From Eledone cirrhosa (taxonomy: Eukaryota), in the NCBI GenBank assembly GCA_964016885.1, contig OZ024756.1, positions 3,348,001 through 3,412,000 on the forward strand: 64,000 bases of DNA. The letters run 5' to 3'. The notes under the pieces are model-generated. The model worked only from the letters and a program-made list of their open reading frames with translations, was not told where the DNA came from and searched no databases. The position numbers and the translations under genes were made by a program. Positions within the stretch are counted from its first letter, which is position 1. Each line of letters begins with the position of its first letter. Positions 675-60,770 of this stretch are shown one piece after another.

Positions 675-879
675 AAAAGTATGACCCCGACGGCGGAGCT
701 CAAGCCGTTTCGATAGCTATTTCTGGACTAAAAACTTTTTAGTCGAAAAATAGCCGTCGAAACGGCTTGAGCTCTGCCGTCGGGGTAATACTTTTTCCTA
801 TTTCCCACTCTACTACCCTAAGTATTGAGTACTCTGGTGTGTTATGGTCCATCTGGTTTCTTACCACTATTCCTTTGTT
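675..879. mobile_element. Family H fold-back element (inverted arms 675-795 plus 3' tail)
   Basis: GACCCCGACGGC.GAGCTCAAGCCGTTTCG arm and its reverse complement, then tail CCCACTCTACTACCCTAAGTATTGAGTACT running into (TA)n; 8 related copies in the window. Confidence 0.75.
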
Positions 880-2046
880 ATATATATATATATGTGTATA
901 TATATATATATATAGTGTGCGTGTGTGAGTGTGTATTTATATATACACATATATTATATATATGTGTGTGTGTGTGTGAGTATGTATTTATATATACACA
1001 TATATTATATATATGTGTGTGTGTGAGTGTGTATTTATATATACACATATATTATATATATATGGGTGTGTGTGTGTGTATGTATTTAGATATACACATA
1101 TTTTATGTATATGTGTGTCTGTGTGTATGTATTTAGATATACACATATTTTATATATATATGTGTGTGTGTGTATGTATTTATATATAGACATATTTTAT
1201 ATATATATGTGTGTGTGTATTTATTTATATATACACATATTATATATATATATGTGTGTGTGTGTGTGTATGTATTTATATATAGACATATTTTATATAT
1301 ATATGTGTGTGTGTGTATTTATATATATATAGACATATTTTATATATATATATGTGTGTGTGTGTATGTATTTATTTATATATAGACAGACATATTTTAT
1401 ATATATGTGTGTGTGTATTTATATATAAACAAATATATATATGTGTGTGTGTGTATGTATTTATATATACAGATATATTATAAATATATGTGTGTGTGTG
1501 TATGTATTTATATATACACATATATTATATATATATGTGTGTGTGTGTATGTATTTATATATACACATATATTTATATACATATATTTACATATATGTAT
1601 ATACATATATTTATATATATATATATATATATATATATATATATATATATATATATATATACGTGTTAATACATATAAATATGTGTCTATATATATATAT
1701 GTGTTTATATATATATGTATGTATATATATGTATATATATATACATACATATGTGTATATATATATATACATGTATATATATATACTTGTATATATATAT
1801 ACATGTATATATATATACAAGTAAATATATATACATGTATATGTGTATATATATATATGTATATATATATACATATGTGTGTATATATATATATATATAT
1901 ATACATATGTGTTTATATATGTTTCATATATACATATGTGTATATATATATATATGTTTTTATATATACATATACGTATATATATATATATATATATATA
2001 TATATATATATATATATATATATATATATATATATATATACATATA
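880..2046. repeat. Degenerate (TA)n/(TG)n microsatellite with higher-order ~42-bp units
   Basis: Direct reading. Confidence 0.95.
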
Positions 2047-2300
2047 TAGTAATAATAATAAATTTGAAGACTAAAATCCAAAGAGGGATAAATATATATT
2101 CGTATATATTACCTGTATGTTTTGCGAAGGGAACGTTTCCATGAACCAAAGTATCACCTTCCCCTTTCCCTTCGGTTGCAACGTTTTTTTAAATATTTAC
2201 TTCTGCGTTCACCGATTGACTTTTTTATTTTCACAAGATCCCGTTAAGGGTGAAAGCAGCGATTCTTTACTTAAACTTTAATCTGTTATTTTAATAAATA
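2047..2300. mobile_element. Family B composite: inverted 3' tail (2047-2100), unassigned spacer, 5'-truncated HHR arm (2235-2300)
   Basis: Matches both parts of the 48234-48474 copy. Confidence 0.65.
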
Positions 2301-3832
2301 TATACATACATATATATATATGTGTATATACATGTATATATATATATGTATATATACATTAATATATATATACATATATATATGTGTGTATATAGATGTA
2401 TATATATATGTACATATATACATTAATATATATATACATATATATATGTGTGTATATATGTATATATATATGTATACATATATGTATATACATATACATA
2501 TATATATACATATGTATATACATATATGTATATGTATATACATATATGTATATATATATACATATTATATGTATATATATATACATATTATATGTATATA
2601 TATATACATATATACATATTATATGTATATATATATATATACATATATACATATTATATGTATATATATATATACATATATGTATATATATATATACATA
2701 TATATATGTATATATATATATACGTATATATGTATATATATATATACGTATATATATATATACATATATATGTATATATATATATACATATATTTGTATA
2801 TATATATATATATACATATATATGTATATATGTATATATATGTGTATATATGTATACATATATATGTATATATATATACATATATGTGTATATATATATA
2901 CATATATACATATATATATATATACATATATACATATATATATATATGTATATATATATGTATATATATATGTATATATATATGTATATATATATGTATA
3001 TATATATGTATATATATATGTATATATATATGTATATATATATATGTATATATATATATGTATATATATATATGTATATGTATATATATGTATATGTATA
3101 TATATGTATATGCATATATATGTATGTATATATGTATGTATATATGTATGTATATATGTATGTATATATGTATGTATGTATGTATGTATGTATGTATGTA
3201 TGTATGTATGTATATATGTATGTATATATGTATGTATATATGTATGTATATATGTATGTATGTATGTATGTATGTATGTATGTATGTATGTATGTATGTA
3301 TGTATGTATGTATATATGTATGTATATATGTATGTATATATGTATGTATGTATATATGTATGTATATATATATATATGTATGTATATATATATATATGTA
3401 TGTATATATATATATATATATATATATATATATATATATATGTATATATATATGTATACATATATGTATACATATATGTATACATATATGTATATATATA
3501 TGTATATATATATGTATATGTATATGTATATGTATATGTATATGTATATATATATATGTATATATATATATGTATATATATATATGTATATATATATATG
3601 TATATATATATATATGTATATATATATATATGTATATATATATATGTATATATATATATGTATATATATATATGTATATATATATATGTATATATATGTA
3701 TATATGTATATATATGTATATATATATATGTATATATATATATGTATATATATATATGTATATATATATATATGTATATATATATATGTATATATATATA
3801 TATGTATATATATATATGTATATATATATACA
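2298..3832. repeat. (TA)n array with TATG/TACA variants
   Basis: Direct reading. Confidence 0.95.
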
Positions 3833-4328
3833 TTATGAAGAGAGAAGAAACATTTAGATATAATTAGTAATAAAATGTATCATACCTAAACTGTTCCTAA
3901 ATTCCTCGACTACGTAGTTTCGTGGCATAAACAAAAACAATATATCAAAGATATAGAGTCCTTGCGAGGTCTGCCGACTTATCAAGAGGATACCTCATTT
4001 TACTAGTCTCAAGAACGCGTCTACACGACGTGAGAAAGAATCCCAAAAGGCGGAGGGGGAGACAGTCACGCGATATAACGGTCGAGAAACAGAGCTAAGC
4101 CTCTTATAACCACGAAGAAAATACCACGGAGGCGGAGGGGGCATTCATATCGAGGCCGTAGAAGAGGTAGTGAAGAAGGCGAGAAGTATGAGTAATGGAA
4201 GCTTTCCAGTTGTCCCCACACTTCAAAGATTGCTCGACCAGAGGGAGTTATTAATATATTTAGAAACACACAGTGCGGATGCATTCATGTATATATGTGT
4301 GTGTCCGCATGTATCTGTGTGTTTCTAA

Positions 4329-6178
4329 ATATATGTATATATATATATGTATATATATATATATGTATATATATGTATGTATATATATATATATATGTAT
4401 GTATATATATATATATATATATGTATATATATATATGTATATATATATATGTATATATATATATGTATATATATATATGTATATATATATATGTATATAT
4501 ATATGTATATATATATGTATATATATATGTATATATATATATATATGTATATATATATGTATATATATATATATATGTATATATATATATATATATATAT
4601 GTATATATATATATATATATATGTATATATATATATATATATATATATATATATATATATATATGTATATATATATATATATATATGTATATATATATAT
4701 GTATATATATATATATATATATGTATATATATATATATATATATATATATATATATATAATATACATACATATTCATATATATATATATATATATATATA
4801 TATATACATACATATTCATATATATATATATATATATATATATATATATATACATATTCATATATATATATATATATATATATATATATACATACATATT
4901 CATATATATATATATATATATATATATATATATATATATATATATATATATATATATACATACATATTCATATATATATATATACATACACATACATATA
5001 TATACATACATATTCATATATATATATATACATATACATACATATTCATATATATATATATATATATATATGTATATATATGTATATATATATATGTATA
5101 TATATGTATATATATGTATGTATATATATGTATATATATATATGTACATATATATATATATATATATATATATATATATATATATATATATACATACATA
5201 TTCATATATATATATTTATATATATATATATACATACATATTCATATATATATATTTATATATATATATACATACATATTCATATATATATATTTATATA
5301 TATATATACATACATATTCATATATATATATTTATATATATATATACATACATATTCATATATATATATATATATATATATATATATATATATATACACA
5401 TACATATTCATATATATATATACATACATATTTATATATATATATTTATATATATACATACATATTCATATATATATATATATTTATTTATATATATATA
5501 TATTTATATATTCATATATATATATATATATATATATATATATATTTATATATATATATATATATATGTATATATATATATATTTATTTATATATATATA
5601 TTTATTTATATATATATATTTATTTATATATCTATATATACATATATATATATGTATATATATATATATTTATTTATATATATATATTTATTTATATATA
5701 TATATTTATTTATATATCTATATATACATATATATATCTGTATTTATATATATATTTATATATTCATATATATATAGATTTATTTATATATACATATATA
5801 TATTTATTTATATATACATATATATATATATTTATTTATATATTTATATATACATATATTTATTTATATATATATATATATTTATATATTCATATATATA
5901 TTTATTTATATATACATATATTTATATATTCATATATATATATTTATTTATATGTACATATATATATTTATTTATATAAACATATATATATTTATATATA
6001 TATACATATATATATTTATATATATATACATACATATATTTATATATATATACATATATATATATATATTTATTTATATATATATATATACATATATATA
6101 TATATATGTATATATATATATATTTATTTATATATATATTTATTTATATATATATTTATTTATATACATATATATTTG
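4329..6178. repeat. (TA)n array with TATG, TACATATTCA and TTTA variant blocks
   Basis: Direct reading. Confidence 0.95.
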
Positions 6179-59267: not shown

Positions 59268-59419
59268 TATATATATATATATATATATATATATATATAT
59301 AGCATATATTAAATATATAATATAGTTAATAATATATAATATATATAATAAATATATAATATATATGTGATATAATATAAATATAATATACATATAATAT
59401 ATATATTATACATATATAT

Positions 59420-59572
59420 ATAATTGTTTCTACTTTTGGCACAAGGCCAGCAATTACCCAGTGTATTACTGGTACTTTATTTTATCGACCCCGTAAGGAT
59501 GAAAGGCAAAGTTAACCTCGGGGTGATTTGAACTCAGAATGGCAAGGGCCGTAACTCTATGCGTCAAAGCAT
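59420..59572 (-). mobile_element. SINE family 1
   Basis: 3' end, core and B-box. Confidence 0.85.
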
Positions 59573-60010
59573 CATATATATATATATATATTATATATAT
59601 GTATGTAAATGTTTGTGTGTCCCGTTAGTAAAAATTATATCGTCTCAAATGTTAGATGTTTTGTCTATCGAGGTTCATAATCTGTTCAATGAAATTATCC
59701 CCCGTTAATTAATATAGATACATATATCTCAGTGATCTTCTTTCACTCTCGTTGGCTGTTATATTGGACATGTTCCCCCTATTATAGACTCGTTAACACA
59801 CACATTGCAGTTGGTCATCTTCACAATATATATGGTATTGTAAATAAATTAATGTTTTGAAGTTTCACTAAAAAAGTTGTCTTTTGAAAAAATCATTTTC
59901 GTTTCTTTTATTTGTTTATATATATATATATATATACGTGTGTGTGTGTGTGTGTGTGTGTGTGTGTGTGTGTGTGTGTGTGTGTGTGTGTGTGTGTGTG
60001 TGTATACATA

Positions 60011-60172
60011 TCCAGGGATAACTTGAACCGCTAAGTTATATTCTCCTTGGTTATGTCACACTTCGTATTTATCTGATGATAGCGTACCAAAATGTTTGGT
60101 ACCCTTGAAATATATATAATAGAATAAATATGGTTTTATAAATATAGTTTCCATTTATTTAATATCATTGTA
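60011..60172 (+). mobile_element. Family C fragment with HHR 60066-60126
   Basis: Close match to 410-578. Confidence 0.75.
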
Positions 60173-60690
60173 TATATATATATATACATATATATATATA
60201 TATATATATATACAATATCGTTTTTAAAATTTGTGAAAACTGAAAGCAGTTTGGGGATTACATATCTATTTTTTATTTGCTACTCATCAAATGTGGTGCG
60301 TTGACCCCAAGGTTTACTTGGTCTGTGTGTGTGTGTGCCTGTGTGTATGTGTGTGTTCTTGTGTATATATATATAAATATATATATATGCGTGTGTGTAT
60401 ATATATATATATATCTATATAAATATATATATATGCGTGTGTGTGTATATCTATATAAATATATATCTATATAAATATATATATATAAATATATATATCT
60501 ATATAAATATATCTATATCTATATATATATATATAAATATATCTATATCTATATATATATATATAAATATATCTATATATATATATATATATATATATAT
60601 ATATATATATAAATATATATATATACATATATATATATATACATATATATATATATATATATATATAGATAGATATATATATATATATAT

Positions 60691-60770
60691 ATAACGAAGG
60701 AAGTGTGGACCATAATTTCCAGAAATAGCCGTCTAAACGGCTTAAGTTCTGTCGTCGGGGTTAAACATTC
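60691..60770. mobile_element. Family H: inverted tail stub plus sense arm
   Basis: TAACGAAGGAAGTGTGG then CCAGAAATAGCCGTCTAAACGGCTT. Confidence 0.65.

Follow-up and report, generated by a model that had tools for sequence, protein, structure and literature searches.

Head-to-head islands of Penelope-like elements in (TA)n arrays of Eledone cirrhosa: a layout compatible with priming at two RNA sites

A stretch of 64,000 nucleotides from Eledone cirrhosa (GCA_964016885.1, contig OZ024756.1, positions 3,348,001 to 3,412,000 of the forward strand) was investigated regarding short repeat islands with two inverted arms, which are assigned here to Penelope-like retroelements. This whole stretch is called the window, and all counts come from this single 64-kb window. 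Its G+C content is 26% and (TA)n arrays are abundant. Masking resulted in 156 islands, which were grouped into repeat families by self-BLAST; many local palindromes were revealed in this way. The family letters A, B and H are those of the first-pass annotation, matched through the motifs it quoted, and the other families were lettered anew (D, E, F, G, Hh, I, K, N, O, P); the letters C, I and N of that annotation came without a definition and correspond to none of the families named here. A set of 26 two-arm islands from seven families, occupying 13% of the window, was curated. Five arms that the aligner had placed wrongly were read by eye, as were the positions of the outer ends. Families F (25365-25569), O (44878-45119), I (14304-14775), K, P and N and the stretches 20492-20614 and 29121-29210 were excluded from the pair count because their tail or inner ends were unassignable; F and O were retained in the microhomology count as misses.

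In the family A island at 38840-40393 two arms of 748 nt with an identity of 0.999 enclose a loop of 2 nt, and each arm encodes 82 residues. This C-terminal half of a protein matched 121 proteins (phmmer, best E 2e-13). In the homologues ..VY.I.C..C...YIGETSRS..R..EH is preceded by a cysteine linker, and P0035 and P0050, which are longer, have a YVDD motif upstream. PF01541 (GIY-YIG) matched two of 12 homologues, below the cut-off. Pfam gave no match for two fragments of the window, that of family A included, and a word-index protein search gave none among 38 candidates. On the homology found by phmmer, the family A fragment is identified as the C-terminus of a GIY-YIG endonuclease. The CX2-5CxxC linker, a trait of the Neptune/Nematis type, is present in the homologues, beyond the part covered by the window fragment, and the reverse transcriptase part of the open reading frame (ORF) was not found within the window.

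The order of features in family A is the ORF stop, an AC-rich untranslated region (UTR), a type I minimal hammerhead motif and a frame from an ATG to the tail end; a new ATG frame after the hammerhead is what tandem read-through would give. Full tandem units were not found within the window, and target-site duplications are hidden in (TA)n. The Naiad clade, which has an N-terminal endonuclease and no hammerhead, was ruled out, since in family A the stop of the endonuclease frame precedes the UTR and the hammerhead. With a hammerhead descriptor 15 matches were obtained, eight in family A arms and the rest in D, E, O and P, most of them with a short palindromic helix III as in PMC4209133. Their folding-energy z-scores were not significant. 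No descriptor match was obtained in H, B or G, and among the Rfam matches listed (150 of 699) there was no hammerhead family, only sub-threshold rows for microRNA hairpins. By eye, hammerhead-like stems with non-canonical cores were noted in B and G and degenerate ones in I and Hh (27985-28015 (-), 42790-42830, 14520-14545 (-), 14845-14875 (-)). Judged from their sequence, the islands are Penelope-like, family A by its predicted GIY-YIG C-terminus and several families by type I hammerhead motifs. For H, B, G and Hh membership is suggested by the common layout, by hammerhead-like remnants (B, G and Hh, seen by eye) and by a tail motif in common with D and E.

This motif was observed in the tails at 35886, 34069, 43503, 43165, 44244, 25976, 57831, 48280 and 49100 (H, old H, Hh, D, E, B, D-like); one frame reads I/V-E-Y/C/F/P, with changes at third positions. 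It occurs in 10 of the 12 tails tried, one of them (D, 575-668) being off-register, and is possibly a conserved ORF N-terminus or a protein-binding site. A 22-nt pattern of family H had no match in metagenome contigs. The search with P0001 gave one distant locus, L001, with 33% identity and no ORF of at least 120 aa, and was uninformative. On this unrelated contig a palindrome of 334 bp (L001:4285-4618) lies near the match to a decayed Penelope-type endonuclease.

The layout of the islands is well patterned. In 25 of the 26 curated pairs (binomial 8e-7) one arm reaches the tail, and the other, shorter arm stops 60-104 nt earlier; no pair with two tails was found (0/26). The tails measure 60 nt in A, 67 in Hh, 79 in H, 85 in B, 89 in D and E and 104 in G. 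Both arms point their 3' ends outward, the orientation being set by the direction of the family A ORF and hammerhead. The first-pass annotation was thus correct in taking both outer ends for 3' ends of the element and in recognizing the one-sided tail known from Penelope. TATATA adjoins 47 of 52 outer ends, compared with 5/26 ends of short interspersed elements (SINEs) and 10.8% of unmasked positions (Fisher 5e-10). Arm-to-arm identity ranges from 0.79 to 1.00 over 13 islands, which argues for aged insertions and not for a single assembly fold-back. Head-to-head pairing, which the first-pass annotation described for A, B and H among other families, applies to 26 of 40 islands in the seven curated families, but 14 are solo; eight of these stop at the tail, five at the inner site and one near it, and a fifteenth solo copy, cut by the window edge, is not counted. 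The layout observation is real and partly confirmed. That two-sided priming is the normal route is roughly right by the same proportion, but for one window of 64 kb.

The stop sites quoted for A, B and H are present as described. In family A tail arms the inner site lies between AACAATAT and CGG, and arms stop there at 38840, 42195 and about 41610, with an alternative stop at 15507. The corresponding sites lie between AATAAATAT and TTG in family B and between TTCCTAT and TACC in family H. Each inner site was derived from the same copies that were later scored against it, and with this reservation 21 of 24 short arms stop within 6 nt of the family site; the misses are at +9, -14 and -78. Family E consists of one island, so that its inner site is circular, and was excluded from this count. 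An alternating A/T run of at least 3 nt was found at the inner stop in six of nine families (2.4 expected, P=0.011) and one of at least 4 nt in five of nine (1.4 expected, P=0.004), the final run lengths per family having been assigned by hand. In Hh, F and O the run is only 0-1 nt, and three of eight short H arms as well as both arms of 45549-45693 stop at the site without a TA flank. The claim of a TA-containing internal stop thus stands as a moderate enrichment of TA microhomology and falls as a requirement. Because of the stops without TA flank and the families with runs of 0-1 nt, the position of the inner site seems to be set by the element itself, microhomology playing an assisting part. 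Since five solo islands also stop there, it appears to be a start site and not only a repair junction.

The tail arms of the 25 one-tail pairs were sorted by their 5' starts. Twelve begin within 25 nt of the partner's start (palindromic islands), ten begin at or after the inner site (non-overlapping islands) and three fall elsewhere; three tail arms of the ten non-overlapping pairs begin within about 8 nt of the inner site. Many arms begin at family-wide 5' points (H about -50, B about -71, D about -165) and therefore look like whole pseudo-long terminal repeats (pseudo-LTRs) and not like random truncations. Thus, the earlier description as 5'-truncated pieces does not suit many H, B and D arms. 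In family A two islands fold at -743 and -693 inside the ORF. Three of six family A pairs, including these two, have arms beginning within 5 nt of each other (permutation P=0.017). In all six informative tight hairpins the native bases of the loop belong to the short arm (P=0.03). Loop ownership was judged against independent copies and at 39588 by protein homologues: the short-arm reading gives Arg, found in 49 of 61 homologues, and the other reading gives Ser, found in none of the 61. Not included in this count are 41572 (tie), 33942 and 43432 (ambiguous), 736 and 25781 (no comparator), 30090, 45622 and family I.

Two further observations concern arm starts. At 44166-44296 the family D tail arm begins almost at the predicted hammerhead cut, and the partner arm contains the ribozyme uncut. 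The sequence AAAATGGCG, close to which several family A arms start (15318-15330, 40076-40085), resembles a YY1-type initiator motif and is possibly the transcription start of the pseudo-LTR.

Table 1 Islands and features of the Penelope-like families in the window
Feature	Position	Strand	Remarks
Family A island	38840..40393		Left arm (-) stops at inner site; right arm (+) reaches tail 60 nt on; loop inside endonuclease ORF
Predicted Penelope-type GIY-YIG endonuclease, C-terminal half	39589..39837	+	Mirrored on - at 39340-39587
Type I minimal hammerhead motif, family A pseudo-LTR	40134..40181	+	Descriptor match
Open frame from ATG across inner site and tail	40311..40393	+	Likely start of the next ORF (role after PMC3846280)
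Family A palindrome	15006..15507		Tail arm (-) and arm stopping at alternative TA run (-78)
Family A palindrome, older	37051..37567		Arm identity 0.91
Family A	40915..41610		Long tail arm, perfect hairpin centre; short arm internally deleted, stops at inner site
Family A non-overlapping pair	42195..42400		Short arm stops at site; tail arm begins 4-8 nt after
Family A asymmetric pair	57930..58297		Tail arm reaches 105 nt further 5'
Family A-like arms	30092..30657		Pairing uncertain
Family H palindrome	675..876		Left end adjoins family D tail, no TA
Family H palindrome	15535..15722		
Family H palindrome	35751..35938		
H-like palindrome, old	33884..34103		
Family H non-overlapping pair	18329..18476		Tail arm begins at site
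Family H non-overlapping pair	28192..28258		
Family H non-overlapping pair	51683..51818		Tail arm begins exactly at site
Family H non-overlapping pair	60695..60776		
Family B palindrome	48238..48472		
Family B non-overlapping pair	2051..2298		
Family B non-overlapping pair	44719..44807		
Family B palindrome, old	45549..45693		Both arms stop at inner site; counter-example
Family E palindrome	25620..26037		Hammerhead motif, 89-nt tail
Family D pair	43997..44294		Hammerhead motif; tail arm begins near predicted ribozyme cut
Family G pair	56243..56759		104-nt tail; tail arm reaches further 5'
Family G non-overlapping pair	42719..43004		
Family G non-overlapping pair	48491..48702		Tail piece by eye
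Family Hh palindrome	43393..43541		
Family Hh non-overlapping pair	14820..14932		

Other repeats were observed next to these islands. At 14820-15722 three families stand in a row with only TA runs between them, an arrangement expected from successive insertions into one array. At 45048-45119 3.1 tandem copies of a 14-nt unit lie between a short hairpin and a TA run; they may be traces of repeated priming or of slippage of a telomerase-related reverse transcriptase. Palindromes without a family lie at 20492-20614, 29121-29210 and 56825-56853, the first two outside TA runs. The SINE-like family used as control for the end flanks consists of 8832-9026 and 12 other pieces, mostly outside TA runs, and one piece breaks up the left arm of family I (14316-14396). 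Two pieces, 34624-35215 and 54079-54424, are 98.6% identical, have a single orientation and are bounded by TA on both sides. They presumably encode the C-terminus of a protein like that of long interspersed elements (LINEs); an Atlas search of the LINE-like fragment gave unnamed clusters only. The ORF fragment at 7134-7925 (-) resembles, in our assumption, a non-LTR reverse transcriptase.

We read the islands as head-to-head 3' ends of Penelope-like elements in (TA)n and give a probability of roughly 0.6 to the view that both target strands were cut and that each primed reverse transcription, one at the tail and one at the fixed inner site. Non-overlapping pairs and solo islands ending at the inner site call for a priming event there, and the one-tail pairing indicates that the two sites are used on opposite strands. 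The ten non-overlapping pairs cannot derive from the fold-back of a single complementary DNA (cDNA). Twin priming at two fixed RNA sites is thus the simplest reading. Both primings probably act within one insertion, and probably on one RNA. The involvement of two primings, as proposed by the first-pass annotation, is probably right, in agreement with the extension of two strands from two RNA sites in vitro (PMC11167929). Its suggested cause, the self-complementarity of (TA)n, can be dispensed with, since cleavage and extension of both strands were already seen on DNA other than TA (PMC11167929).

Beyond the layout, we infer the following steps. After cutting of both target strands, one would prime at the element tail and the other 60-104 nt upstream of it, at the inner site. 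Synthesis of the tail-primed cDNA would frequently halt on reaching the inner primer or short of it, and the ten non-overlapping islands would result from joining of the ends, as in L1 twin priming. An AU/UA match of 3-7 nt at the inner site likely aids priming on TA DNA and would not be required. For the 12 palindromic islands we propose, tentatively and with less than even confidence, that the inner-primed cDNA folds on a short inverted repeat, copies itself and is captured by the tail cDNA at the site that they share. Palindromes would arise in this way or through extension of both cDNAs to one RNA end; the loop bias speaks for the former. The strictest form, an obligatory two-primer reaction in which tail and inner site are assigned to opposite target strands and the folded inner-primed cDNA is captured by the tail cDNA, we regard as rather unlikely, though worth stating.

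Several observations weigh against this proposal. The 14 solo islands did not follow the pairing, one pair of the 26 (45549-45693, within 45545-45725) has two inner ends, and protein evidence is absent from the window in H, B, G and Hh. Among asymmetric pairs the short arm reaches further in seven of nine (P=0.18), and at 56243-56759 and 57930-58297 it is the tail arm that does so. Of the six loop calls two are weak, namely 15320, an A-run with a mismatch, and 15589, for which another comparator gives a tie. At 48399 the tail arm is favoured by 3 nt when a third comparator is used, the upstream part of which is TA flank. The symmetry of H, B and D arms needs no coupling and is partly trivial, because the arms share the family 5' end. 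Inner arms are frequently just about 50 nt long, so that tail-only arms could partly be chance short products. Furthermore, the start site reported in PMC11167929 shows no homology with the cut DNA and did not vary between the strands.

The best surviving alternative retains priming from both sides and omits the fold-back: both cDNAs would reach the same RNA 5' end, by strand displacement on one RNA or on two RNAs held by a protein dimer, and would be joined by microhomology. This is closest to the earlier claim that the template was copied twice, which fits 12 of the 25 one-tail islands, although there the copy may come from DNA by fold-back, and does not fit the ten without overlap. The clustered 5' ends of H, B and D agree with it, as does the dimer predicted for the Anolis protein (PMC11167929), and it accounts for the tail arms that reach further (2/9). 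However, it expects unbiased loops, in contrast to the six of six tight hairpins favouring the short arm, and two RNAs would not share the stops -743 and -693, as one broken RNA would. We consider this alternative possible, though not probable. In a second alternative only the tail primes; its cDNA snaps back, copies itself and is linked through microhomology to the opposite (TA)n end, at whichever suitable inner TA comes first. Palindromes and the enrichment of TA at inner ends (6/9 families) are explained in this way, but not the ten non-overlapping pairs or the five solo islands at the inner site. It further expects the tail arm to own the loop, which was found in none of the six tight hairpins, and three of eight short H arms stop at the site without a TA flank. 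Single tail-primed snap-back fits worst, is already disfavoured and appears very improbable.

It has also been proposed that self-priming on antisense RNA makes a hairpin first and that the endonuclease resolves its ends and leaves a one-sided tail (PMC3846280; PMC8557442). This was put forward for palindromes at head-to-head junctions (PMC3846280), and tight hairpin centres are present here as well. Non-overlapping pairs with a tail arm beginning at the inner site are not predicted by it, however, and reverse transcription in vitro starts at the two tail boundaries (PMC11167929), so that we think it very improbable for these islands. An assembly or amplification fold-back artefact, or break repair in (TA)n after insertion, can practically be set aside: palindromes and TA arrays are hard to assemble, but arm identities vary widely, the duplications stop at element-specific sites and include no flank, SINEs of the same window are without such an end pattern, and one public run, which may be the source sample and not independent, holds 0.76 of the sampled words from a 2.5-kb stretch with three islands; three other runs with small shares carry no weight as evidence.

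Twin priming from two RNA sites has to be compared with known systems. Inversions of L1 formed by twin priming have non-overlapping arms, a variable inner site and one poly(A) end. In the present islands, by contrast, each family has one fixed inner site, and the arms overlap as palindromes in 12 of 25. An interpretation of the islands as L1-type twin-primed inversions was rejected, as arms without overlap occur in only 10 of 25, the inner site is fixed and poly(A) ends are absent. Similarity exists in the use of primers on opposite strands, which gives a 5' inversion with 3' ends outward (bioRxiv 10.1101/2024.12.14.628481), and in the ten islands that are likewise non-overlapping.

Closer similarity exists to Penelope-like elements with endonuclease of the Neptune/Nematis type. 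An adjacent inverted, 5'-truncated copy and a tail of 30-40 bp, often at one end only, were described, together with (TA)n targeting in Naiad and Neptune elements (PMC8557442), and palindromic head-to-head junctions were reported (PMC3846280). Inverted head-to-head copy, one-end tail and junction palindrome are shared by the islands, as are the pseudo-LTR hammerhead, the C-terminal GIY-YIG domain and microsatellite or (TA)n targets that hide target duplications. Differences are the tails of 60-104 nt in seven families compared with 30-40 bp, a length that is descriptive and not definitional in PMC8557442, and the nearly strict one-tail pattern (25/26) compared with "often" in print. Two island types and a loop bias were not found in the available text of PMC8557442 and PMC3846280. 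For Poseidon of Anolis carolinensis cleavage and extension of both strands were shown in vitro, with two start sites of reverse transcription bounding the tail and a predicted dimer (PMC11167929). AT-rich targets, start sites bounding the tail and a tail within the ORF start are features in common. The Poseidon start site lacks homology to the cut DNA, whereas six of nine families here have 3-7 nt of alternating A/T at the inner site. In the available text of PMC11167929 the two sites are not linked to the two arms of one inverted insertion. Animal non-LTR retrozymes are also short and non-coding, with type I hammerheads and kinship to Penelope pseudo-LTRs (bioRxiv 10.64898/2026.07.22.740005), but form tandem arrays, whereas inverted pairs or solo copies are found here. 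An explicit twin-priming model for Penelope was not found in the literature searched, to which subscription papers, Repbase and the supplements of PMC11167929 and PMC8557442 did not belong.

In general, the layout is largely known and its biochemical basis partly known, and a specialist would not be surprised by the layout itself. The longer tails (2-3 times the published length), the near-strict pairing, the two island types and the loop bias are possibly new, as a modest variant. The origin of the inverted repeats and one-sided tails of Penelope elements is named as open in PMC8557442, and the steps past first-strand synthesis are left unvalidated in PMC11167929. In a genome dense in short insertions the mechanism becomes computationally testable through end pairing, tail-arm starts and loop ownership. 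If the obligatory two-primer reaction were true, a single route would account for the inverted pseudo-LTR and the junction palindrome together with the one-sided tail, no antisense template would be needed, and the inner site of TA-targeting families would have turned into a short AU match to the target.

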